A model generated the notes under the pieces. That model did not search any database. It was given only the letters and a program-made list of their open reading frames with translations, and had not been told where the DNA came from. From the IMG/VR virus record IMGVR_UViG_3300048837_000398, positions 39,012 through 103,011 of that record: DNA of 64,000 nucleotides. The stretch is one strand, 5' to 3'. The position numbers and the translations under genes are program-made. This document shows positions 6,173 to 59,600 of this stretch, in pieces. The DNA is from a virus. How positions within the stretch are numbered: position 1 is the first letter of the stretch; each line of letters begins with the position of its first letter.

Positions 6173-6559
6173 TTATGCTATCAATATTTTGACCAACCTT
6201 TCGGGGTTAGTCGCGTGTTCTTGTGGAAAGTCTTTTGGGAGCGCAGCGAGGAATTCAGGATAGACGCCTGCCTGCGCTCCGACTTCTACCCATGTTGTAA
6301 AGTCTTTTTCGAAAAAGACCCCCTTACCGAGAAACGCGTTGAAGGCCTCTATTGCGATGTTGGGGCTTTGTACAGAAACAACAGCAATTGCTTCGCCGTT
6401 TAGGATAAAGCTGTTACATTGAGCCTTTGTGCACGCTAAGTACAGGTGCGCGTCTGTGTACTTACCATCGACCTTGCGATGGTCAATGTGTGTTCTGATG
6501 TGCATTACCATTGTCCTATTATTTATGAGTTTAGCTATATTATGCGGGTATGGGGGCAA
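6173..6559 (-). CDS. hypothetical protein
   Basis: 128-aa ORF; start uncertain. Confidence 0.6.
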   Translation of the reverse strand: MPPYPHNIAKLINNRTMVMHIRTHIDHRKVDGKYTDAHLYLACTKAQCNSFILNGEAIAVVSVQSPNIAIEAFNAFLGKGVFFEKDFTTWVEVGAQAGVYPEFLAALPKDFPQEHATNPERLVKILIA

Positions 6560-6566
6560 GGTGTGT

Positions 6567-7013
6567 TTATACTTTTATTGCGTTTAATGTTTCCAGTACT
6601 TCGGCTATTGTAGCCGGTTTTGCGTTGCGCAATAGCAACCAAGGTTTTGCGTTTGTACCTTCGCCGATTGTCCCACCTTGCGCGGTGAAACTTTTATTTC
6701 CCATCGTGAACGCAACTAAATCGCAAGCGTGCAACTTTGTGGAAAACTCTTTTTCGGCCACAACGATTTTGCAATCAAATTTGATTGCATACGTGCCGTT
6801 TGCATAGTCGCCGTTTGATCCTTCGGTCATCTTCGCAATGGGATTAAGTGCAATTGCGCTCAAAATCTCTACTTCGCGGGTTTGACCTTCAGCGAACAAA
6901 GCAGCAAGTTCGGCAGAATACGCGCCAATGGCGCGGGACTTCGGATTGACTACCAACCCATCTGCCAAAAGGCCGATAATTGAATGACCAAAACTACCCA
7001 GTTGAATATTCAT
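6567..7013 (-). CDS. hypothetical protein, first gene of the leftward arm
   Basis: 148-aa ORF with an AT-rich leader. Confidence 0.7.
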   Translation of the reverse strand: MNIQLGSFGHSIIGLLADGLVVNPKSRAIGAYSAELAALFAEGQTREVEILSAIALNPIAKMTEGSNGDYANGTYAIKFDCKIVVAEKEFSTKLHACDLVAFTMGNKSFTAQGGTIGEGTNAKPWLLLRNAKPATIAEVLETLNAIKV

Positions 7014-7057
7014 ATGTGTGTATTTAATAAGATGTTAAAAAGTTTGTGAAAACTCTA

Positions 7058-7280
7058 AACACCCCTACCCCCATTTGTTCCGCAAAAGCGATAGCGGGGT
7101 ATGCAGTTGGGGGCCATAATATTTATCGCACACACAATTTAGGCCAGCATATTTATCGCGCGCATAAACTATCAACAATTAACACATAAAAAATATTATT
7201 TGCTAGTTACGAAAAACGCAGAAAAAGGCACCCTACCCCCTCTTTTTGCGCAGAAAAGGGCACCCCGGCTCTCTTTTTTA
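7058..7280. repeat. short direct repeats in the divergent intergenic region
   Basis: CACCC(C)TACCCCC at ~7060 and ~7229; ATATTTATCGC at ~7119 and ~7149; GCAGAAAA(A/G)GGCACCC at ~7218 and ~7250. Confidence 0.6.
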
Positions 7281-7337
7281 AGTACCTACTCCTCTAATCG
7301 AATACACACTAAAAATATTTTAAAAATAGTTGCTCTA

Positions 7338-7373
7338 AAATGCTAGCGTTTAATTTCCTTTTTATTATCTTTG
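7338..7373 (+). promoter_or_regulatory. Bacteroidota primary-sigma promoter P1
   Basis: TATCTTTG (-7 element TAnnTTTG) at 7366-7373. The AAATGCTA...TAATTTC..TTTTA..TATCTTTG layout recurs at 7747-7783. Confidence 0.75.
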
Positions 7374-7382
7374 CACCAGTTA

Positions 7383-7657
7383 AAGTCCCCACTCTATTAG
7401 CATACGAGTGCACGGCCCAGAGAAGGTAATCCGAGGTATGGGTCCAGAAGTCGGTTTAGTAGTTCTAAATAGGAACGAGGTTTTCACCGATAGGGCAAAA
7501 ATGGTTAGTCAAGCAGCTTCTAGTGTTCGTACTGTTTTGCTATCGTTATCAGGGCTCCATATACAAGTGATAACGAAGTACGTAAGGTGTCTCTCACTGC
7601 TAGAAGTCAAGTGCCTAACTCAAGTTACTTTAGCGCCCAAAAATCGCTAGGGGGCTT
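7383..7657 (+). ncRNA. unassigned highly structured RNA (~275 nt)
   Basis: Nested helices 7383-90/7650-57, 7493-96/7635-38, 7504-08/7615-19, 7516-23/7600-07, 7528-33/7577-82 and 7543-51/7568-76, plus three 5' hairpins. Begins immediately after P1. Confidence 0.65.
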
Positions 7658-7746
7658 GCTATATCGTTTTCTAAACTAGCGTCCTACGGACGGAGGCGCT
7701 TCCGCCTAAATGGGGTGTCTTAAATTATTTTCCTTAAAAAGCGCGC

Positions 7747-7783
7747 AAATGCTACTACTTCTAATTTCTTTTACGTATCTTTG
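7747..7783 (+). promoter_or_regulatory. Bacteroidota primary-sigma promoter P2
   Basis: TATCTTTG at 7776-7783 with the same upstream elements as P1; 70 nt before the first rightward CDS. Confidence 0.75.
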
Positions 7784-7852
7784 AGGAGCGTTAAACGAAT
7801 ACGTACATTCTAAGTCTCTACGAAAAGCTCTCGTCTTCTTTCTCTACCTCTA

Positions 7853-8257
7853 ATGTCTCTAACGTTTCCTACACTTTCTCCTAAAGAGTTTATGACGCTG
7901 TTCCTCAGGACTCTCTCGTCTCTACGTAAAGAGAAGCTGTCTCCGCAAGAGTTAGACATGCTCGTGGCTTTCTCGCTTCTTCCTCACAAGTTTACGTCTT
8001 TTCCGTTCTCTACTGTCGGCAAGAAGAAAGTAGCTAAGCAGCTAAAGATTTCTAATCAGGCTCTTCATGCGCGCATCTATTCTCTTCTCAAGAAAGGGTA
8101 TCTACGTAAGGATGAAGATGGTGTAGTGCTGCTACCAGCGTTCATACATCAGACCCTTACCTCTTTCTTGAAAGGGTCGTACGCACTAAACATTTCGTTT
8201 ACTCTTGATAACTCAAAAGACTACTCGTCTCTTACACGAGACTTCCCAGCTGACTAG
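7853..8257 (+). CDS. winged HTH DNA-binding protein
   Basis: LSPQELDML...KKVAKQLKISNQALHARIYSLLKKGYL, a MarR-like pattern. Confidence 0.7.
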   Translation: MSLTFPTLSPKEFMTLFLRTLSSLRKEKLSPQELDMLVAFSLLPHKFTSFPFSTVGKKKVAKQLKISNQALHARIYSLLKKGYLRKDEDGVVLLPAFIHQTLTSFLKGSYALNISFTLDNSKDYSSLTRDFPAD

Positions 8258-8540
8258 CATTCCTTACCATATTATCGAACACGTGATTCACCACCAGTTC
8301 TTTTGGATTGCTACTCAGCTATCTCTTCCCACCTCTCCGCACTTCAAAGTCTACCGGCTAGGCTCGTTTCATCTGCCTAAGGCCGCGCTCATCCACAGAC
8401 TTCGAAAGTCGCTCCTCATACTTAAACGCAAAGCTTCCACTCCTTCTTACGAGGCTTTTATCAGAAAGTTCATCTCTACAACTTGACCACTTCGACATGA
8501 AGCAAAAAACTTTTCAGACACAGCCCAAATCCGCTATTGA
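8205..8540 (+). CDS. HU/IHF-like protein (TGA 8484 read through; end at 8540 or 8627)
   Basis: Two N-terminal helices followed by FKVYRLGSFHL, resembling the HU/IHF fold. True C-terminus uncertain. Confidence 0.5.
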
Positions 8541-8733
8541 TCCACTGCAACTCCAGCTGCTACAGCACAATGTGCACCTCGATACGCTAAAGGTACTTAC
8601 AAGCGTACTACAAGCATCTACGCCTAATACCCTTCTTCACGACACTACTTCTACTCTCATTCTTCAATTCTTAGAACCGTTCAAACATGGAAATAGCGAA
8701 CCTATCACTGATGGGGAATCGAGTGCTGATTAA
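8497..8733 (+). CDS. hypothetical protein
   Basis: 78-aa ORF. Confidence 0.5.
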   Translation: MKQKTFQTQPKSAIDPLQLQLLQHNVHLDTLKVLTSVLQASTPNTLLHDTTSTLILQFLEPFKHGNSEPITDGESSAD

Positions 8734-9064
8734 GCTCGACGAACACCCAGATCACACCGTCACTTCTACAGGTATAATTGTGCCTGACTTCACTCCGTCC
8801 TACACTGACTCAGGTCGACCAAAAGACGAGCTCTCTAAGCTTAAGCACCTTTTTAAGGGTACTGTCCTCGCTCTCTCGCCCATCGCCGCCCAGAAGCTCG
8901 CTGAAGAGTCTACGCCTCTGTCACCTTCCGACAGAGTCTACATTTCACAACAAGCTTTCTCAGACTCGTACCAGTTTTTTCTGAATCGTGATGCTATCAC
9001 TCTTCCTTTCGAAGGTCTCATCGCAATACCTCACTCTCTAATCGAAGCTAAAATCAATGGCTAA
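8687..9064 (+). CDS. groES: co-chaperonin GroES-like protein
   Basis: LMGNRVLIK...TSTGIIVP...GTVLA...DRVY, matching the Cpn10 pattern with an extended mobile loop. Confidence 0.75.
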   Translation: MEIANLSLMGNRVLIKLDEHPDHTVTSTGIIVPDFTPSYTDSGRPKDELSKLKHLFKGTVLALSPIAAQKLAEESTPLSPSDRVYISQQAFSDSYQFFLNRDAITLPFEGLIAIPHSLIEAKING

Positions 9065-9398
9065 AACTATCACTTCACTCACTAAGGAACTCTCGACAGC
9101 TCAAAAAGAGCTTTCCACCCTTTCTCTTCAGATCTCTACTCTCTCTACTGAGAAAGAGCAACTCACCGCCGTACTCCAAGAACGTCAGCGTTTGCTCGAG
9201 TACGTAGCATCTATTCTTCTCGAGATTCAGACTAACCTCGAAAAGTATCCAGCTCTCTTAAACATTCCGTCTAAAATCAAGATCTTCTGGGTAATCTCTA
9301 ATCTTGGCTCAATCATTTCTTTCCTTACTTTCCTCATTTCCAAGATCAAAGAGTTCGCAACAAACATCAAGTTTAATAAGGATGCTCCTGCTCAATAA
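9057..9398 (+). CDS. coiled-coil protein with C-terminal hydrophobic helix
   Basis: Heptad repeats followed by IFWVISNLGSIISFLTFLI. Confidence 0.6.
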   Translation: MAKTITSLTKELSTAQKELSTLSLQISTLSTEKEQLTAVLQERQRLLEYVASILLEIQTNLEKYPALLNIPSKIKIFWVISNLGSIISFLTFLISKIKEFATNIKFNKDAPAQ

Positions 9399-9876
9399 CT
9401 TTGATCCGTCACAAGACTTTTGGCTCTCTAATCCGCAAGCTCAAATCATCTTCGCTGACTACGTCAACACTCCTTCGTCACACATGTGGGCGGCTCTGCT
9501 CTATGCTCATCCAGAGTCAAAGCTGTTTAACGAGTCGCCCACGTCTCGACGTCTACTCATCATCGAAGACTATTTAAAAGACCCCTCTTTCGATTGAGAC
9601 TCTCTTCTTCCACTCATCGAAGCTATCAAAAGGCTAGCTCTTTCTAAGCCTCAACAGCTTCTTCTCAACTGGGAGAAGCGTATGTACGAACGAGAAGCTT
9701 TCATGGATTCGACCTCCTACTCTCAAGAGACGTATCAGATGAAAGAGCAGATGGCTAAGGAGACTCCTAAGATGTGGCAATCTTTTTTCCAGATACAAGA
9801 TCTCCTCTCGAAAGAGAAGGCGTCCGTCACTGAAGGAGATATCGAAGAATCGCTCTCTGAAAAAGGCTTAATCTAA
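9382..9876 (+). CDS. hypothetical protein (164 aa; TGA 9595 = Trp), possible small terminase subunit
   Basis: Track ORFs 9304-9597 and 9682-9876 are in one frame, joined as DPSFD-W-DSLL. The TerS role is a guess. Confidence 0.65.
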
Positions 9877-9881
9877 CGCAC

Positions 9882-10028
9882 ATGAAACGTCACTATTCTT
9901 CGAAACTAGACAAAGATGAAGCTCTAGCTTCGTACTCTCCACCACCCTTACCAAAGTCTCCGACTCCTCCAGCAAAAGATTCTTCTCCTACACTTTGGCA
10001 AAAGCTAAAAAGGGTCGTATCTTTATAA
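9882..10028 (+). CDS. 48-aa Pro-rich protein
   Basis: MKRHYSSKLD...PPPLPKSPTPP...TLWQKLKRVVSL*. Confidence 0.45.
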   Translation: MKRHYSSKLDKDEALASYSPPPLPKSPTPPAKDSSPTLWQKLKRVVSL

Positions 10029-10036
10029 CATCAACC

Positions 10037-10268
10037 GGGGATGAACCAGGCTCGACTAGTTAGCTAGTATCTTTTAATCGACAATTACCACTTCACTCTT
10101 GGCCTCGACATAGATCAAGATCTGCTTCTCTCTGTAGCGGATGAAACAACAGAGACAGTACCGTCCACATTACAAGAAGTTTTAGTTTAATCACCACTCA
10201 CACGCTTACCCACACGCTAGTAAACTAGCCTACTAACTAGGACGCGGGGGCAGTGCCCGCCATCTCCA
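10037..10268 (+). ncRNA. ssrA: tmRNA (compact, 232 nt)
   Basis: GGGGATG/CATCTCC-A acceptor with G3:U70; 5' GG..CGAC motif; helix 2 CTAGTTAG/CTAACTAG; T-arm GCGGG-GGCAGTG-CCCGC; tag frame 10080-10190. Confidence 0.88.
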
Positions 10269-10803
10269 AGCGCCTATGCGAATTAAAGAAAAAGTTTGTT
10301 CTAATTGTCTTCAAACTTTCAAACCAACGTCGCGGCATCGACTCTGTCCTAAATGCAGAAACTCTCTCTGCAGGAAGGAATGCCAAAATTGCGGACGACC
10401 TATTCAGTGTAAGTCAAAATATTGCGTACTATGTTCTAACAAATTAGAGCCGCGCAATACTTCACCACTAAAGATCAGAGCCGCAAACCACGCTTTGAAT
10501 AAAGCCCGTTCTCGTCACCACGTAGTAGACATAACTGCTGACTATCTAATAGAATTATTAGAACACCAACAGTCTAGGTGTGCTTATACAGGTTTACCGA
10601 TGTACTTACCTACATCTACTAAGTCTTGTGAAGATAAACGGTTATGCGCATCTTTGGACCGAATCGACTCCACCCTACCATACACAAAAGGTAACGTACA
10701 ATGAGTAGTCGTACCAATTAATCTAATGAAAAATACTATGTCTGACCAAGACACTCGTGAATTTATTTCGTGGCTCAAGAATTCTTAGTGCCCGCCATCT
10801 CCA
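10252..10803 (+). repeat. 17-bp direct repeat AGTGCCCGCCATCTCCA flanking the HNH gene
   Basis: Exact copies at 10252-10268 and 10787-10803; only the second is followed by CCA. Confidence 0.95.
10276..10788 (+). CDS. HNH-type endonuclease with N-terminal CxxC zinc ribbons (170 aa; TGA 10702 = Trp)
   Basis: Four CxxC pairs, then CAYTG...SLDRIDS...YTKGNVQ-W-VVVPINLMK. Confidence 0.8.
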
Positions 10804-10805
10804 CC

Positions 10806-11012
10806 ATGACACGACTCGACGCAAATCTCGCAATTATCGACATCATCGCTTCTTACGCTAAGGCCTATCCGACTCTCAGATTCGGACAGATCCTTACTAA
10901 TCTTGACGTAGCGACACATCGCACATCTGACCACGGCTACCTCGACATTTTCAACGAAGAGCCTCAGTCAACACTTCAAAGAGTTACTGATAGTTTGCCG
11001 AGGATTGACTAG
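10806..11012 (+). CDS. small phage protein (P.LRFGQ motif)
   Basis: MTRLDANLAII...YPTLRFGQIL; the ATG overlaps the CCA of the displaced tmRNA end. Confidence 0.65.
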   Translation: MTRLDANLAIIDIIASYAKAYPTLRFGQILTNLDVATHRTSDHGYLDIFNEEPQSTLQRVTDSLPRID

Positions 11013-11013
11013 T

Positions 11014-11101
11014 GATCGCCTCGAACGCCCGTCCAAGGGACGCTGCCTATCCTAGGCTCACGTTTAAACGAACTAAGGATGACGCTAGGAAAGACTAGAT
11101 C
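11014..11101 (+). ncRNA. candidate small structured RNA
   Basis: CGTCC-AAG-GGACG, ATCCT...AGGAT and CTAG-GAAAGA-CTAG hairpins, enclosed by GATC...GATC. Confidence 0.35.
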
Positions 11102-11104
11102 TAC

Positions 11105-11187
11105 GGAGAGATGGCAGAGCGGTTTAATGCACTAGTCTTGAAAACTAGCGGTCTCACGATCCCCGAGTTCGAATCTCGGTCTCTCCG
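11105..11187 (+). tRNA. tRNA-Ser (anticodon TGA, reads TCA)
   Basis: GGAGAGA/TCTCTCC-G acceptor; CTAGT-CTTGAAA-ACTAG anticodon arm; variable arm; CCGAG-TTCGAAT-CTCGG T-arm. Confidence 0.93.
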
Positions 11188-11246
11188 CATCACCTGTGTT
11201 GGTGCTAAACAGTGTGGTTTAAGTTGTAAAAACTTACCACACACCT

Positions 11247-11332
11247 ACTCTAGTGGCGGAATCGGTAGACGCTATACTAAGCAGCTGAAGCTAGGCAATT
11301 CAGCAGTACAGGTTCGAACCCTGTCTAGAGCA
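11247..11332 (+). ncRNA. tRNA-Leu-like RNA with aberrant anticodon arm
   Basis: CTCTAG/CTAGAG acceptor; Leu-type D arm TGGCGGAATCGGTAGACGC; perfect T-arm ACAGG-TTCGAAC-CCTGT. The middle is 11 unpaired nt plus GCTGAA-9nt-TTCAGC. Confidence 0.7.
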
Positions 11333-11345
11333 CCCTCTCGAGGTA

Positions 11346-11424
11346 TAGTATGTGGTGTACGATGCACGTTCGAATATCCGCGCGGTCACTTCGGAAAGAG
11401 TAAGTTTAATTCTTATCATACTAA
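11346..11424 (+). ncRNA. tRNA-like RNA with 15-nt anticodon loop
   Basis: TAGTATG/CATACTA-A acceptor; GTGT/GCAC D stem; TTCGAA-15nt-TTCGGA; GTAAG-TTTAATT-CTTAT T-arm. Confidence 0.55.
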
Positions 11425-11426
11425 CT

Positions 11427-11636
11427 ATGGATAAAATATACCAATTCTTAGGTGAGTTTGATTCTTCTAAATTAGAAGAGCTTACCGTTCAAGATCCTGA
11501 TTGGGTTCTTGCACACTTTAAACATGACAATTGGGGTACTCTAACATCTAGAGAACACTATGAGCAATCTAAAAGATTAGATAAAGAGTTCAAAGAGTTA
11601 GAGGCTTCCCTAACATTCGGAAAGAAACCCACTTAA
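11427..11636 (+). CDS. hypothetical protein
   Basis: MDKIYQFLG...; start moved to ATG 11427, downstream of the tRNA-like RNA. Confidence 0.6.
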   Translation: MDKIYQFLGEFDSSKLEELTVQDPDWVLAHFKHDNWGTLTSREHYEQSKRLDKEFKELEASLTFGKKPT

Positions 11637-11637
11637 T

Positions 11638-11877
11638 ATGAAACACGTAGAATACCTTACTAAGGCAGAATTTTTAGAGCGTTTTGGTCATCTTTTGTCC
11701 GACGAAGAACTTAAGCCTCTAAACTTGAATCCAGAAGATTTAGACCCTTACAGAATACACTTTATTCCTAAGACTGAGCTAGAACTTCGTCTTAAGAAGT
11801 ACCCACGAGTTCCTGCTGAATGTTACGACAGCCCTCACACACTAGAAAATGAAGACTTACAAAGTAAAAGTACGTAA
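11638..11877 (+). CDS. hypothetical protein
   Basis: 79-aa ORF. Confidence 0.6.
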   Translation: MKHVEYLTKAEFLERFGHLLSDEELKPLNLNPEDLDPYRIHFIPKTELELRLKKYPRVPAECYDSPHTLENEDLQSKST

Positions 11878-12103
11878 GGGTTACTTAGGTGACTTTGCCC
11901 GCGAATGGTGGACTGATGAAGACCACGTTACATGGGATAAACATGTGGAGCAGTTAAAAGCTGACGGTACTTTTGGCGAAGAATCTACAGTAGAAATCTC
12001 TCTAATACATAATCCTAAACTTGACGCTTGTCAACTATACTCTCCACTTCAAAGTGCTCGATTTGATTTTCTAGATTTTTCTAAACCACTACCTAATGAA
12101 TAA
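11849..12103 (+). CDS. hypothetical protein
   Basis: 84-aa ORF. Confidence 0.6.
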   Translation: MKTYKVKVRKGYLGDFAREWWTDEDHVTWDKHVEQLKADGTFGEESTVEISLIHNPKLDACQLYSPLQSARFDFLDFSKPLPNE

Positions 12104-12470
12104 AGATCTGATAGTTCAACAAGTAATCAATAAGTTTGAAACTCGTTCAGCATTAGGAATCGCTAAGTACGGCACTACGCTACACGACAATAATACAGAT
12201 GATTTCCTTACCCATCTTCAGGAAGAACTGATGGACGCTACCCTTTATGTTGAGAAATTACGTCAGTCCCCCAAACAGCTTTTCATAAAGAACACGCTCG
12301 TCAAAGATTCGGAGGGAATAGTCCTTAGATGTATTGTCGCTGATCGTGAAACAGCTATCTTTGCTCCATATTCAGAGAATCCACAAGATGGTTCTTTCTA
12401 CACTAATTATTCTGAGCTTTCAGCGTACTTTAACGATCCTTCTATACCTAACGATCTAATAATTATCTAG
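12096..12470 (+). CDS. MazG-like all-alpha NTP pyrophosphohydrolase domain protein
   Basis: R...G..KYGTTL...L.HLQEELMDATLY motif. Confidence 0.65.
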   Translation: MNKDLIVQQVINKFETRSALGIAKYGTTLHDNNTDDFLTHLQEELMDATLYVEKLRQSPKQLFIKNTLVKDSEGIVLRCIVADRETAIFAPYSENPQDGSFYTNYSELSAYFNDPSIPNDLIII

Positions 12471-12471
12471 C

Positions 12472-12834
12472 ATGGAACAACCACTACTTACACCGCTAAC
12501 ACTTGAGGTTAGCATCACTAATAAGCATGGCGATAAGATTCGTCACTATTACGAAGAAATGACTGATTCTAATGGCCACCCCATTGAGCTTCAGATAATG
12601 AATAATTTAGACTACATTTGTGAGTCCATAGCTCACTGGCTAAAATTAGATCGCATAGAATTCGAAACGCGCATTCCACCTAATGATAACGACGAGTACG
12701 TCGTCAACTACAAGAACGAAGACAGAAAGTTCCCTACAGAAACGGTTGTTTTTGCAGACAATCTTACTAACATTAGAGCTGGCATTATCAAAGGCACACC
12801 TTCTATCACAATTCGAAAAAGTTATGCTACGTAG
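12472..12834 (+). CDS. hypothetical protein
   Basis: 120-aa ORF. Confidence 0.6.
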   Translation: MEQPLLTPLTLEVSITNKHGDKIRHYYEEMTDSNGHPIELQIMNNLDYICESIAHWLKLDRIEFETRIPPNDNDEYVVNYKNEDRKFPTETVVFADNLTNIRAGIIKGTPSITIRKSYAT

Positions 12835-12856
12835 ATTTTCACAAGCTTAATTACTC

Positions 12857-12952
12857 GGGGGTGCTTCACTGTTGCAGAACAGGACTAGTCTTCAAAACTA
12901 GACGACTGGGGTCCAAACTCAGTTTATTCGGGTGCAAGTCCTGACACCCTCG
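12857..12952 (+). tRNA. opal-decoding tRNA (anticodon TCA), atypical long-variable-arm body
   Basis: GGGGGTG/CACCCTC-G; D hairpin CTGTT-GCAG-AACAG; CTAGT-CTTCAAA-ACTAG (anticodon 12892-12894); variable arm ACTGGG-7nt-CTCAGT; T-arm TCGGG-TGCAAGT-CCTGA. Confidence 0.88.
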
Positions 12953-12967
12953 CAAAATTCAACAACT

Positions 12968-13210
12968 ATGAACTGTCTAGAATTCGCTCTTAACGAGTGG
13001 CAGAATAATCCTAACGTCATTATTCTTTACGATGCAGACCACGTAGTATGTATTACAGACAAGTGCTACGACCAAAACGGGCCTTGCGCATACTTCTTAG
13101 ATCCTACGAAATATCTTCCACTTAAAGAATATGGTCTAAGACATCTACTCAGCTCTTTCGACTTAACTACACACTATTCGAACATTTTAAAAGCTTACCT
13201 AAATCAATAA
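12968..13210 (+). CDS. hypothetical protein
   Basis: MNCLEFALNEW...; start moved downstream of the tRNA. Confidence 0.6.
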   Translation: MNCLEFALNEWQNNPNVIILYDADHVVCITDKCYDQNGPCAYFLDPTKYLPLKEYGLRHLLSSFDLTTHYSNILKAYLNQ

Positions 13211-13404: not shown

Positions 13405-13649
13405 CAGCCAACCTATCGTTTCTAGACAACGAAGTACTGCTCTATCACTCGACACTCCAACTAGAGAGTGTGAAAGATGTCGACAAAGCGCTAGACGCAG
13501 AGCTCTCAAACTTAAAGATGGCGATATTCGCTCACATCTACAAAAACCGTCCTTCAGAGTGGCACGAACCAACGCCGCTTCCTAACACAAACTTACTCAA
13601 TGACAAAGAAAGTTATTACAGGCCCATCACTCCAGACGTCACTACTTAA
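13398..13649 (+). CDS. hypothetical protein
   Basis: 83-aa ORF overlapping the groEL start. Confidence 0.5.
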
Positions 13650-16191
13650 TGGCGTAAATACTATTGCTAATGCAGTAGGATCAACTCTTGGCCCACTAGG
13701 CCGTAACGTAGTTATCGAAACTCCGTATGGCGCAACAACTGTTACTAAAGATGGTGTTACAGTTGCTCAACAAATTACTCTCGAAGATCCTCTCGAGAAC
13801 TTAGCTGTTCAAATTATTAAGCAGGCATCAGAGCGCACAGCTTCTATAGCTGGCGACGGACCACAGCCCCTTTATTCGAAAGTTCTCACACCAACTGGGT
13901 GGACAACTCTAGGTGAACTAAAAGTTGGAGATACCATTTGTGGTACAAATGGTACTACACAAAAGGTCGTAGGCTTTTACCCTAAAGGACCCTTACCTTT
14001 ATATAAGGTTATTTTTTCGGACGGAAGAACAGTTGAATGTTCGGAAGACCACTTGTGGACCGTGACCACTAATTACGGAAAACAAAAAACTCTGCCTCTA
14101 AGTGAGCTTATAAATCAAGGTTTGTCGTTAATTAACGACGACGGCCACAATAAGTACAAGTTTTTTGTTCAAACTACTGAAGTAGAATTTGATGAAAAAC
14201 CCCTCCCCTTAGATCCTTACTTTCTAGGAGTATTGCTTGGAGATGGTTCCCTAAGTGGAAGTGGTGCAATTGAGCTCTCGTTAGGCCTCAAGAAGGCACA
14301 CATACTACAAAAGCTTCTTTTGCCAGAAGGCATGAGTTTTACGATCGCTTTAGATGAATCTAAAAATTATATTAGAGTTAGATTTCAAGGTGCTGATAAA
14401 AATGGGAAAAATCTAAAAGACATTCTTTTAGATTTAAATTTGCTCGGAACACATAGCGCTACAAAATTTATTCCGGACCTATACCTCTATTCGAGCTTAA
14501 AATCTCGCGAAGCCCTTTTACAGGGTCTCGTAGACACTGATGGCCATGTTAATCTTCGTGGCAAATTCGAGTTTAGTACTATAAGCGACCAACTATCTGC
14601 CAACTTTCAAGATTTGGTACGCTCACTGGGCATTCAGACGCACTACACAAAGTTAGACCGAACATATTCTGGCGGATATTCTGTAAACCCAGTCCATCGG
14701 ATAGTAGAATTAAAAGGGTACAAACACGGCATCAAAATAGTAGATGTTCAACCTCAAAACAGATTTGAGGAGATGGTCTGTATTAAAGTTTCAAACGATG
14801 ACCATTTGTACATCACAGATGAATATGTCGTCACACATAATACAACTACTGCAACAGTACTCGCGCAAAAGCTTTATTCCGAAGCACTTAAACTAGTTAA
14901 CTCGGGTGTCGCCCCTATCCACATCAAGAACGATTACGAAGCCTACTTAAAAGCTATCGCCCCTCTTATCGACGATAATACGCTCCAGATTACGACGCCT
15001 CAAGACACGTACCAGATCGCACTTATTTCTGCGAATAACGATCCGACTATTGCATCTCTTATTTCGACAGCTATCGAATACGTAGGCAAGGATGGCTCGA
15101 TTACACTCGAAGAGTCTAAGACTGGCGAGTCGTATGTAGAGCTAGTAGACGGTACTTCTTTCGAGCGCCCTTACGCTTCTCCGTACTTCGTCACTAATCC
15201 GCCTAAAGGGACAGCTGAACTCACCAATCCGCTCATCTTTATTACGGATAAGAAACTTCGCTACAATCAAGAGCTTCTTCCCGTACTCAACTTAGCAGCC
15301 GATAACTCACGTCCACTAGTTATTATTGCAGACGATATCGAAGGTCAAGCTCTTCAGACGCTCGTCATCAACAAGCTTCGCGGTACTATCGAGGTGCTAG
15401 CTATCAGAGCTCCTTCGTACGGTGAGAACCGTCTCGAAGTACTTAAAGACCTCGCAGCCCTCACTTCAGCGAACCTTATTACAGAGCTCTCTGGAACACG
15501 TATCGAAGATGTTAAGCTCACTGATTTAGGTGAAGCGGCTAAAGTGATTTCTTCGCGTCACCAAACTATCATTGTTGATGGTGTTCAAGATCCCACCCAA
15601 ATCGAAGCTCGTGCGAGTACAATCACACAGCTTCTCGCTCAACATCAGCCAGACTCATATTTCTATAAGCAGCTCTCTACTCGACTAGCTAAGCTCACTG
15701 CTAAGGTTGCAGTGCTCAATGTAGGAGCACCTACAGAAACCGAGCTTAAAGAGCGCAAAGCCCGTGTTGACGACGCACTTCGAGCTACTACAGCAGCTAT
15801 TAAAACTGGTTTCGTAGTTGGTGGCGGTACGCTTCTCGCTAAGCTCTCGACTACCCTCCCTAACGATCTTTCGTCTAAAGCCTTCGCACTAGCTCTTCAA
15901 GAACCTCTTCGTCGAATAGCTGAAAATGCTGGACAATCTCCGTCTCTCGTCCTTTCAAAAGTACTTGAGAACCCTTCGATTTCATTCGGTTATAACGCTT
16001 TAACTGACTCCTATACAGATCTTATCGAAGACAAGGTTATCGATCCTGCACTCGTAGTGAAGCAAGCGCTACTCTCCGCAGTTTCAGCAGCAAACATGCT
16101 CATCCTATCTTCGACTGCAGTCTACAATGTAGATCGCACTCCTCCTTATTCTCCAGGCTCTCTAAATGATTTTGAATCGCACGAATCCTAA
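13600..16191 (+). CDS. groEL: chaperonin GroEL with intein (536 aa after splicing)
   Basis: [22 protein letters not shown]|[34 protein letters not shown] and VIDP motifs. Confidence 0.96.
13861..14841 (+). mobile_element. class 3 intein with LAGLIDADG endonuclease (327 aa)
   Basis: Starts [14 protein letters not shown] and ends VVTHN|T. WCT triad: DHLW, MVCIKV, THN. Endonuclease motifs LGVLLGDG and LQGLVDTDG. Confidence 0.92.
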
Positions 16192-56600: not shown

Positions 56601-59600
56601 ACACCAGAGATTGTAGCTGCTATCAAAGAACGTGGAACCTACAACTTCAAAGTGCTTTCTCCGAACGAGATCCGTGCTAAGGCAGCAGACTCTCTACTCG
56701 ACTCTCCCGATACTGTAGTTGCGAACGCTATCAAGAACGAACAGTTTAACGAAGACTTCGATGGCCTACTTCGCGTCGAGCTAGAGATGTCTAACGTAGA
56801 GAATTACATTACTATCCTCGAGCAGAAAGTTAAAGAAGATGCTCTATACGAACCAGTGCTCGAAAAGGCTAACTACCTTCTAGAGTCTTTAAAATTTATA
56901 GTAGATGAGATTCAACGTGTTCGTGCTAATAAAGAATTGAAGATTCGTGAATTCAGTCTTATGAGGCTCAAGGGACTCCTCGCCACAATAGACGACTTAA
57001 AAATAAAATTCCCTGATAATCTCGAAGCTTCACTGCGCCTCTTAGCAGAGCAACAACCTCAACACGCGTACTACGTTATTATGGACGCTCTCGCAGATCA
57101 GAAGGTTGATCTGGAAGTGCTCAAAGCAACGATGCGTGAAACCGTGACTGCTCTTCCTATCTGGCAAGTTAAAGGTCTTATCGTTCAAAACATTAGCGAA
57201 GAAGAGTTGGACGTGCTATTCTCTTCACCGGCTCGTGGCTTAGAACTTATCGCCGAAAAAATTCGCACTAACGAACGCAACCAAGGAGCTACAGGGCAAT
57301 CACCGCTCAACGACTTCTTAGATGACTACGATATCGTACGCTTCAAAAGGAATCTCGATAGCTACGTAGGCACAGTAACTACTGCTGCTCAGCTACAGTC
57401 TCTCGTAGATCTCTACCTCAAAGCGCTCGCAATTAAAGACCTCGAGCTTTCTAAGTCTAATCAAGCGTATCGTAATCTAACGACTAAGTTCCTCAAGTTT
57501 GCGCAGGCTCAAGAAGTTAAGAAGGGTAAGGGTGAAAAGGCGATCGCTCCTCCTACAGATGCGCAGCTACAAGCTGTCTCTGAACTAGCGCGCTTCATAT
57601 TCTCTCCGCCATCTCCCCGTAACTACTTGTTCGATAATGTGGCTGGTCTTAAAGCTCCAGCTGGTGCAGGCAAGACGTCCGTGGTTATTCCGCTTCTAAA
57701 AGAAGTGTTAGGACTCGCTAAGACAGCCATGCTGACTGCTGCTCCAACTAAGGGTGCGTCAGAGCTTATCGCTAAAGAAACTGATTCGCAGTACGGAGCT
57801 ACAGACTACGAAGCTCTCATCAACTTACTCGAGAATAAAAGCTTACCGCCAGCAGTGTCCGTAATTGTGTTAGACGAAGCTGGCGCCCTTTCTATTCCTG
57901 AACTCACACGTCTGACTACAGCTCTCGTGCGTTACAACGATACGTCAACCACTAAGGTTAAACTTGTCATGGTGTACGATCCAGCGCAGTTAACTACGGG
58001 TGACAACGCGACAGCTTCTATCGACGCTAAACGCTTCTACGAAGTTCCTAGCCCGATTAACGATTATCACTCTGGTACTCCAGAAGTTAAAGAAGGCTAC
58101 AAGAAAGCTAAGGTCGATAATCCTGAACTAGGTAAAGGCGTAGGTGTTCCTTTCGTACACCACATGTACGATCTTTCTCCGCTTTCGACTACGTTCCGTT
58201 CACCTCTCACAGAGATAGTAGAACTGCAAAACGCGTTCAAAAGTTCTGAGACCGTCTCACAAGTACGCACTTCTTCGAACGCTACTACTAAAGACATGAC
58301 TAATGCTCTAGGTACTGTAGCAGCTTCTTCGCCAGCACACCTCATCGCTACGATAGTTCAGTCTACTAACGATAACAGGGCTCTAGCTCGTACTCGCATG
58401 GTTGTAGTTGGCTCTGAAGACAAGAAGCGTAAGTACACTGAAGATCTGAAGAATGCTAATGTGCAAGATGTTAGCGTCCTTACTGTCGAAGAGTCTCGCG
58501 GTCTCAATGCTGACGAAGTATATGTAGACGTAGTAGAAACAGATGCTCGCGCATATCGGATTCCTAAGAAGCTTAATCAAGCTATCTACACAGCAACCTC
58601 ACGAGCTATCAAGTTCATCTATCTTACTAACGTACAGTCAGGTAAACACGTGCACGATCCTTCGCTACCGTCTAAGCTCGAAGCAATTCAGCAAGCACAA
58701 GAGTCTAAGTATGCTGAGCTTATAGAGCGTCTTAAAGAACGTGTCGAAGCATTTAAAGCTCTAGGCGAAGAAGTAGTTGTTCCACCACCTACCACACCAC
58801 AGGAAGCCCCTGAGGTGACAGAACCGTTGACAGAAGAAGAAGCTTCTGAAGACTTCGCCACAGATATTCCCGAAGAGATCACTCCTACGCCACCTACAGA
58901 TCCGTCAGTTAATCGTCATACGATACGTCGTCCTCAGTCAGAAGTATTCGGGACTACTAAGCTACAGCCTATCACTCCTGGTACTGAAGTGTACTTCGTG
59001 CGAAACGTTGATTCTAACGGTGAGCGTATCGAGATGTATGTGCAGCATACGCCCACCTTGTGGCGATTGGTTGGAATCCTCGAAGACTCCGAAGTAGAAG
59101 AAGTCTCTACTAAGATAGGCGCTAACCTTAGAGAGCTGCCCGAGACACAAGTACGGAAAGCACCATTCAGTGAAGACACTACGCAGCGAAACATCTTTGA
59201 ACTCTCTACTCCACCCTCGCACTTCGCGAATGCACGCATAGGTGTTAATTCGCACGATATTATCTACCACTATGGTGGAGAAGCTACTGCGATGTTTGCA
59301 TCTACGCCCGAAGATCCTAACGGTCTTCAGCACTACGCTAAGTGATGGCTAGAGCAGTGGTACGTAGATCCAGCTAAGCACATTTCTAATTATGCAGACA
59401 TCATTGCTAATCCGCACAACTACTTACGCGTAGTATCGTTCAAGTCTGCTAAAGAGGTTGAAGCTGCTTTTAAATCGATAGCTGATCCTACCAAACGTCC
59501 TAAGCTTAATCGCCCGTACCTCATCATTAGAGGCGCTAAGTCTACTAAGGGTACAGACATTGCACCACAGTTCGTAGCGCTTCGCCCTGCTATCCTGAAA

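Follow-up and report, generated by a model that had tools for sequence, protein, structure and literature searches.

We analyzed a 64,000-nucleotide stretch of phage DNA (hereafter the window) that comprises bases 39012-103011 of the 103-kb IMG/VR virus IMGVR_UViG_3300048837_000398, a genome with direct terminal repeats whose portal, terminase and giant virion proteins in the window match crAss-type PHROGs. Genes to the left of position 7013 are directed leftward and genes from 7853 onward are directed rightward, and the 840-nt divergent gap between them holds the subject of this report, an element that runs from 7380 to ~7731 on the + strand. The comparisons described below give good support to the conclusion that this element is a stand-alone gene for a stable, folded non-coding RNA of ~280-350 nt that belongs to a new family, one that is absent from Rfam 15 and is carried by many large phages using Bacteroidota-type promoters. 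An earlier note, made from the letters of the window alone, had proposed a new phage non-coding RNA at 7383-7657 that is made as the first transcript of the rightward arm. That proposal has held up well given the lack of an Rfam match, the conservation between strains, the covariation among relatives and the -7 promoter box that many members share.

The RNA is preceded by promoter P1, whose -7 box TATCTTTG at 7366-7373 is by direct reading of the Bacteroidota TAnnTTTG type, and transcription would start at ~7379-7383. The same -7 box is present 61-92 nt before the conserved core in ~16 family members, and in many members it lies 6-12 nt ahead of the first helix. A second box TATCTTTG, read directly at 7776-7783 and thus outside of the RNA, belongs to promoter P2, which would serve the first protein gene of the arm at 7853-8257. 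The location of this box between the RNA and the protein gene marks the RNA as a separate unit. The earlier note had called promoters P1 and P2 near-duplicates, which is a loose term for a shared -7 box and ~30 of 40 upstream bases that are alike by eye. GC skew is positive in the RNA block and strongly negative on either side of it, as is expected if the RNA needs G residues for pairing.

Relatives of the RNA were obtained by several routes. A search with the phage GroEL recovered related phages, among them a 103-kb phage (L014) in which blastn matched window positions 7415-7507 at 86% identity, and a 20-nt core was common to L015, L018 and L078. These matches lie upstream of a homologue of the 7853-8257 gene wherever the contig reaches far enough (L018 does not), and the hairpins of the relatives differ in sequence while their pairing is kept. 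A search pattern for the core (CAGAAGTCGG, gap, CCGATA, gap, AAAT) identified 51 loci in IMG/VR, ~47 of which are clearly the same element, as well as many matches in GTDB contigs that are mostly chance, with ~18 true ones, mainly in Bacteroidota metagenome-assembled genomes (MAGs) and a few Clostridia. A GenBank member was found by blastn with a 75-nt core at relaxed E-value in CrAssphage cr118_1 (Besingivirus coli, Suoliviridae, from human gut; locus L250), where it is unannotated at NC_055872.1 66586-66706 in the divergent gap between gp57 and gp58. The layout in cr118_1 is that of the window, with the RNA followed by a small gene and then by the 'putative chaperonin' gp59, and this position ahead of the same neighbour genes is kept in the window, L014, L015, L078 and cr118_1.

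A covariance model, R1, that was seeded from the window and L014 with stems P1, H1, H2 and an apical hairpin (21 pairs) gave 59 matches. The window scores 143 bits with R1, which is expected of one of its two seeds, and membership of the family rests on the 57 other matches; with an improved model, R2, the window scores 103 bits. Each of five complete phages (92-143 kb), as well as the window's own genome, has exactly one copy. Several searches returned nothing or nearly nothing. Specifically, blastn against GenBank phages gave no match for window 6500-9500 or 7300-7800, for the neighbour protein, or for members L109 and L090; the 7853-8257 product used as bait in IMG/VR gave a single distant locus, L002, at 33% across 60 residues; the alignment of its homologues (A1) gave none in IMG/VR or the JGI metagenomes; and the 148-aa protein encoded upstream found no relatives. 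Loci collected by way of the portal gene were too short to reach the RNA. Within the Crassvirales the presence of the RNA is patchy, as cr118_1 has it while R2 found nothing at E<=1 in the whole phi14:2 genome and no member in crAss001 or crAss002, the three cultured crAss-like phages that were searched; no cultured phage is known to us to carry the family. A 16.6-bit match at 58260-58400 of crAss001 lies inside the RNA polymerase gene gp50 and was set aside as noise.

The most strongly conserved part of the RNA is a 5' domain at 7385-7496 (model R1, alignment A4), which forms a four-way junction and lies on the + strand, like the other parts of the RNA unit and its two promoter boxes. Its helix P1 (7385-7388/7493-7496) pairs the 5' end with the bases just after H2, and all of its pairs show compensatory change. 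Next come an optional hairpin P1a (7390-7394/7406-7410), which is seen only in the window sequence, and H1 (7414-7419/7439-7444), with compensatory changes in five of its six pairs. These are followed by the near-invariant junction CAGAAG (7445-7450) and by H2 (7450-7455/7486-7491), which contains loop-E-like internal loops and bears an apical hairpin (7462-7466/7472-7476) with compensatory changes in all pairs. The near-invariant unpaired bases of this junction are CAGAAG, GUU..UAG, GAG-UUGUC and GAUAG. The three hairpins that the earlier note had drawn by eye are all in the sequence, CACTC/GAGTG being P1a, GGCCCA/TGGGTC being H1, and TCGGT/ACCGA lying within H2. The window thus has the 5' four-way junction, CAGAAG, H2, GAUAG, the A-rich linker and the covariation by which we define the new family.

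The covariation that the earlier note had called for is strong across the 59 homologues. In alignment A4 (59 copies), 95.7% of cells are paired versus 68.6% when shuffled and 290 cells have changes on both sides of a pair versus 78, although these pairing figures are inflated because A4 was fitted to the model. The covariation score of A4 is 0.679, as compared to 0.173 for shuffled alignments (0/500) and at most 0.076 when the partners are slid, and 15 of the 21 pairs exhibit compensatory change; most of the positions that vary have four to six types of pair. Five H2 pairs and parts of the linker were fixed by the search pattern, so that their invariance is imposed and uninformative. An alignment-free test, in which each strand is compared with its own partner region and with the partner regions of other members, gave 5.39 for own versus 4.79 for permuted partners (maximum 5.07) for helix P1, 7.83 versus 6.75 (maximum 7.19) for helix P2, and 6.45 versus 5.18 (maximum 5.71) for helix P3. 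When MAFFT and RNAalifold were applied to the pattern-anchored alignment only H2 was recovered, which is why a model seeded from two sequences was needed.

Downstream of the 5' domain the family plan is, after GAUAG and the 3' strand of helix P1, a linker, helix P2, an internal loop, helix P3, a variable insert, the returning strands of P3 and P2, and a tail. In the window the A-rich linker AAAAAU (7497-7502) is nearly invariant in alignment A2, in part because it was fixed by the search pattern, and it leads to a 3' rod domain (7503-7620) composed of helix P2 (7503-7508/7615-7620), helix P3 (7516-7525/7598-7607) and the variable insert. Most members have UAUAAG opposite GAAAU in the internal loop between P2 and P3. 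The earlier note had described a ~145-nt rod of five nested helices, and its two outer helices, P2 and P3, do covary by the own-versus-permuted comparison. The inner helices (7528-7532/7578-7582 and 7543-7551/7568-7576), which include the 9-bp stem TCGTTATCA/TGATAACGA that is indeed present at 7543-7551/7568-7576, are predicted by the minimum free energy (MFE) fold and fall in an insert that varies between lineages.

The 3' tail (7649-7665 in the window, AGGGGG, a spacer and UAUAUC) has the family form YAGGGG-N4-8-UAU(G/A)UC and was located by a short regular expression 68-310 nt (mostly 68-206) after the core in 47 of the 59 distinct members. The closed multibranch drawing of the earlier note needs to be amended at this end. 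All of its stems are present and the RNAfold MFE structure essentially matches it, but the helix that closes it lacks support from the family. Its end pairing AAGTCCCC/GGGGGCTT (7383-7390/7650-7657) exists in the window and scores 7.09 versus 7.01 for the control; both this pairing and the closing helix written as AAGUCCCC/GGGGGCUU are unsupported in the family and compete with helix P1. No covarying partner for the tail was found among the members, and pairing between the tail and the 5' region was rejected as a family feature for lack of covariation. Beyond the tail, two hairpins (7680-7692 and 7694-7707) and a U-rich run (7724-7731) can be read directly, and the segment 7680-7731 is probably the 3' end of the RNA unit or a terminator.

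Evidence for the extent of the unit comes from strain comparisons, in which contigs of four public DNA runs were compared with window 6500-8700. The strain in run X1 is ~95% identical and covers 7037-8130, while X4, X5 and X6 contributed short pieces only. The listed differences in X1 number 19 in the 215 nt of 7150-7364, only one in the 367 nt of 7365-7731, and 14 in the 399 nt of 7732-8130, seven of which are inside the protein gene. A Fisher test of the block versus the 614 flanking nt (1 versus 33) gives p = 2e-6, or p = 1e-3 when four unlisted differences near the contig ends are all placed in the block. Pieces from X4 and X5, which derive from two other studies, agree with the conservation of the block. 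Its only listed strain difference is a G>A change at 7472, seen in runs X1 and X5 (two studies), that converts the U7466.G7472 pair of the apical hairpin to U-A. The box of promoter P1 is unchanged in X1 and X4, with variation at spacer positions 7356 and 7364, and at the other end no strain difference is listed before 7732, where differences resume. As the strain-conserved block spans 7365-7731, the 3' boundary of 7657 in the earlier note requires revision, with the unit running ~75 nt farther through the two hairpins and the U run. The upstream half of the gap (7040-7300) is the part that varies most between strains, and run X1 differs there by 19 changes and, at 7140-7150, by a 42-nt replacement. 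It has short direct repeats (ATATTTATCGC twice, and AAAAGGCACCC then AAAAGGGCACCCC) with a T run after each, and these could be leftward terminators or regulator sites.

The energy of the fold would not have revealed the RNA. The MFE fold of 7383-7657 is -77.4 kcal/mol with z = -1.49 (18 of 200 shuffles were as good) and that of 7379-7735 has z = -1.06, and the reverse strand folds worse than the + strand. With an ordinary fold energy, one sequence alone would leave the claim of an RNA unproven, and it is the comparative data that carry the support.

The same comparative data bear on whether the locus is an RNA gene at all, rather than the gene of a small protein or a DNA element such as an origin or packaging site. 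An 80-codon frame with a GTG start does exist (ORF 7408-7650), the locus sits at the strand switch of the genome where the cumulative GC skew turns, and direct repeats lie just upstream at 7100-7300. However, the closest relative (L014/L118) has a stop in this frame just past the conserved core, the frame has no PHROG match, and reading the region under TGA=W or TAG=Q gave nothing convincing, so that 7408-7650 is not a protein gene, in agreement with the earlier note that had seen no credible ORF. In addition, the changes within the family are compensatory in stems and not synonymous, the element is not confined to strand switches and is present in a bacterial chromosome as well, and the promoter before the element and its G.U pairs are strand-specific features that fit an RNA. 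We therefore regard a protein gene or DNA element as extremely improbable.

The bacterial chromosome in question is that of a rumen Bacteroidota MAG (RUG14866, 1.8 Mb; G006), in which R2 identified at least 18 copies of the RNA (loci L252-L266). These copies have diverged to 70-95% identity and many of them are at contig ends. In each copy a TAnnTTTG box of its own precedes helix P1 by a few bases, the 3' domain is shortened and a GC-rich hairpin is present, and the repeat unit consists of only promoter, RNA and hairpin. In nine of 16 cases the copy lies directly against the 3' end of a gene that runs toward it and codes for a BspA-LRR/T9SS-tail protein, and beside such a convergent gene there is nothing for a leader to lead. 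These copies are the weightiest argument that the RNA is a separate gene. A second palindromic repeat (CCCACCCCGTCGC..., then GGCGGGGTGGG) follows several of them. The RNA was found in none of 40 other genomes from the family of this bacterium and in one of 150 from its order, indicating that the hosts do not use it as a housekeeping RNA.

Such a distribution could also be produced by a selfish or repeat element, that is, a promoter-RNA-terminator cassette that spreads between phages and genomes and from which the phage gains little or nothing. The many diverged copies in one MAG, often at contig ends as repeats are, their near absence from the rest of the family and order, and the patchy presence in Crassvirales would all suit a cassette of this type, as would the homing endonuclease genes that adjoin the RNA in L119 and L247. 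We nevertheless judge this explanation improbable. Purifying selection on the RNA is stronger than on the neighbouring protein gene, compensatory changes keep its pairs across very diverged phages, complete phage genomes have exactly one copy, and in the window, L014, L015, L078 and cr118_1 it keeps its position ahead of shared neighbour genes. Furthermore, no transposase, reverse transcriptase or terminal repeats are in the bacterial repeat unit.

An RNA that begins at a transcription start and heads co-directional genes may alternatively be a cis-acting 5' leader of the rightward (late) operon, either a riboswitch-like sensor or a put-like antitermination element, with the 5' junction as sensor of a ligand or of RNA polymerase and the tail and hairpins as expression platform. 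Several features are of the type that a leader would have. The RNA is directly before terS-terL-portal in eight loci, the junction closed by helix P1 is rich in invariant bases and hence aptamer-like, and in the window and L118 the 5' strand can pair in a switch-like manner with either the segment after H2 (helix P1) or the G-rich tail. The tail looks like a ribosome-binding site with an AUG, and hairpins and a U run come after it in the window. On the other hand, the bacterial copies are self-contained and often face a convergent gene, and the window and at least six relatives have another promoter between the RNA and the genes (by eye, L018, L090, L110, L114, L124 and L244 each show a further -7 box shortly past the tail). 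The phage downstream genes are functionally unrelated (terS, helicases, HNH/GIY-YIG endonucleases and a peptidase), unlike the targets of metabolite riboswitches, and the pairing of the tail with the 5' end lacks covariation. For these reasons the RNA was not assigned to the riboswitches or cis leaders. The tail was also rejected as a general translation start since in most members its AUG is absent or opens short, unconserved frames. As a leader would have it, the downstream gene of the L079/L087 group (132-181 aa) does start at the AUG of the tail. When the tails of L079 and L098 are compared with those of L087 and L105, codon 8 is TAA in L079 and L098 where L087 has CAA, reflecting either a broken gene or a different start. 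A leader therefore seems unlikely to us, though it deserves to be taken seriously, and the presence of one copy per complete phage together with at least 18 units in the rumen bacterium favours a trans-acting RNA over a leader.

Comparison with known RNA families gave the outcome that the earlier note had expected of a novel RNA. Rfam 15 (4227 models) has no match at E<=10 to 7000-8000 or to the 371 nt of 7370-7740, and at gathering score the window contains only tRNAs. In the homologue L015 there is only a chance match of 15.6 bits downstream of the RNA, and a copy from the rumen bacterium gave only noise. The tmRNA and tRNA classes were rejected because ARAGORN reports only a tRNA-Ser at 11105 and there is no tRNA-clan match in 7000-8000.

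Of the three roles that the earlier note had offered as examples, nothing in these data points to a replication primer, and the two others did not fare well. A 6S-like polymerase decoy is disfavoured because the 6S models are unmatched and the conserved core is the four-way junction, while the interior of the rod, the part that would mimic a promoter, varies between lineages; 6S RNA was rejected as an identity on these grounds. 6S RNA is a rod with a central bubble resembling an open promoter and acts in trans by sequestering a core host machine, and it is in this class of mechanism, not in its architecture, that the new RNA would be similar to it. Likewise, membership of the phi29-type packaging RNA (pRNA) family was rejected, as the Rfam scan of both segments, which presumably included the pRNA family among its models, had no such match. 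The RNA directly precedes terS-terL-portal in the eight loci noted above, and it also occurs as the stand-alone bacterial copies, beside which no packaging genes were seen.

Since the ends of the window RNA resemble helix P4 of RNase P RNA, a relationship with this ribozyme was examined. RF00010 and RF00011 gave no match at E<=10 in the whole 103-kb genome, while the same search was positive in 11 of 14 control genomes, and a search of the phage genome for RnpA (PF00825) was empty at E<=10, although a host RnpA could still serve. The P4-like end pairing AAGUCC/GGCUU (AAGUCCCC/GGGGGCUU) is lost in relatives, and the pairing between tail and 5' end is not covarying. RNase P RNA as such was therefore rejected. 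The two share a multi-domain build and a link to tRNA genes, and differ in the order of their elements, in the absence of a model match and in a phage that has no RnpA gene. Short stretches of the new RNA may resemble the conserved CR-I and CR-V strands of P4; more specifically, in terms of E. coli M1 RNA, CAGAAG-UCGGN would correspond to J2/4 plus the 3' strand of P4, and GAG-UUGUC-N'CCGA to J3/4 plus the 5' strand of P4.

A ribozyme in a broader sense, which would process itself or cut phage tRNA or tmRNA precursors and might include a reduced, circularly permuted RNase P-like core, would be consistent with invariant unpaired bases being concentrated at a multi-helix junction and with the tRNA and tmRNA genes that are frequent nearby, including the arrays of L127 and L111. 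Standard RNase P models would miss a core with such a permuted element order. Even so, a ribozyme is improbable in our estimation given the failure of the RNase P models and of every Rfam family, the missing RnpA gene, the loss of the P4-like pairing and the oddity of 18 copies of a housekeeping-type enzyme in one bacterium. A long shot is the version in which the invariant core would be a catalytic or machinery-binding centre and, at its boldest, the RNA a miniaturized, circularly permuted RNase P-like ribozyme, with helix P1 as P5 and the 3' rod as specificity domain. If it were true, these phages would carry an RNA to mature their own tRNA, suppressor-tRNA and tmRNA transcripts.

In their ecology the closest comparisons are ROOL (RF03087) and GOLLD (RF01998), large and intricate RNAs of phages and prophages that are often located by tRNA genes, have conserved bases of tertiary appearance and whose function is not known. 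The new RNA is similarly ornate, phage-carried and set in a neighbourhood of tRNA genes, yet it has no sequence or structure match to either, is ~210-350 nt versus ~580-800 nt, and has another architecture. HK022 put RNA, which is ~70 nt and acts only in cis, and riboswitch leaders share with the new RNA that a promoter-proximal structured RNA heads a long phage operon; the new RNA differs in having its own hairpins and a second promoter after it and in its isolated bacterial units. The crAss-like phage phi14:2 produces two abundant long non-coding RNAs from the gaps g004-g005 and g005-g006, which exceed most mRNAs in abundance and for which no function was determined (bioRxiv 10.1101/2020.03.07.982082). 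These too are non-coding RNAs of long intergenic regions in a crAss-like phage; they are in the early region, whereas the new RNA heads an arm with chaperonin, tRNA and packaging genes. As R2 finds nothing in phi14:2, its RNAs are outside of the family and are analogues at most.

Turning to the neighbours of the RNA, the rightward arm of the window contains a GroES-like gene, tRNAs, a UGA-reading tRNA-like gene, an intein-bearing GroEL, terminase, portal and structural genes, and the product of the first gene, 7853-8257, has five homologues at 56-60% identity. In the GroEL-like ORF (13600-16191, 863 aa), matches to Hom_end and LAGLIDADG_3 at residues 292-361 lie between the chaperonin parts, an insert with the appearance of a homing endonuclease-containing intein in a phage chaperonin. 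At a distance of 0.5-1 kb the RNA is followed by arrays of six tRNAs in L127 and 18 tRNAs in L111. Suppressor-type tRNAs (anticodons tca, cta and tta) are present in RNA-bearing L101, L119 and L121 and in the window at 12856-12952, the latter with 26.8 bits to tRNA-Sec, which is below the cut-off. True long-tag tmRNAs of relatives, at 54.6 bits by Rfam and also called by ARAGORN, occur ~2.5-3 kb downstream of the RNA (L078 8277-8559, which equals L101 13232-13512, and L122 4771-5031), and neither ARAGORN nor Rfam (E<=1) gave a tmRNA in window 9900-13100. The RNA has no protein-coding gene as a constant neighbour, indicating that its partner is a conserved host component or that the RNA acts alone.

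With these alternatives considered, we rate as slightly better than an even chance that the RNA acts in trans as a scaffold or decoy for part of the RNA or translation machinery of the host while the phage develops, in the ecological class of ROOL and GOLLD. According to this proposal host RNA polymerase would transcribe the RNA from promoter P1 and would stop at the hairpins and U run before promoter P2, after which the RNA would act in trans and not on its own transcript. The invariant 5' junction may be a binding surface for a factor conserved among hosts, or a self-contained tertiary core, and the variable rod would be the scaffold. Several points weigh against this picture and the separate gene on which it builds, in addition to the fitted alignment and the imposed H2 and linker positions mentioned above. 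The fold of the single sequence is not significant beyond chance. The downstream neighbour is co-directional in 35 of 46 cases, with an ORF often 10-100 nt after the tail, and in L015 and L078 no second promoter was seen, both of which fit a 5' leader as well. The tRNA or tmRNA genes within 22 of 54 loci are a frequency that has no matched control. Finally, we infer transcription, the RNA ends and the stability of the RNA from sequence, and 'scaffold or decoy' denotes a class of mechanism and not a given partner protein or ligand.

Ornate large RNAs of unexplained function are rare, and new classes of them have tended to uncover new biochemistry. At ~210-350 nt, with members of the L099 type as the minimal form at ~210 nt, this RNA is small enough for structure probing and cryo-EM, and its conserved junction invites a search for the ligand or partner. 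The amplification in the rumen bacterium is a second and independent puzzle, which may reflect capture of a phage RNA, an anti-phage decoy or a new kind of repeat, and these copies show that the RNA can work without an adjacent phage-encoded protein. The family is widespread in the crAss-like and other Bacteroidota phages, which are abundant yet little understood, including a named crAssphage of the human gut.

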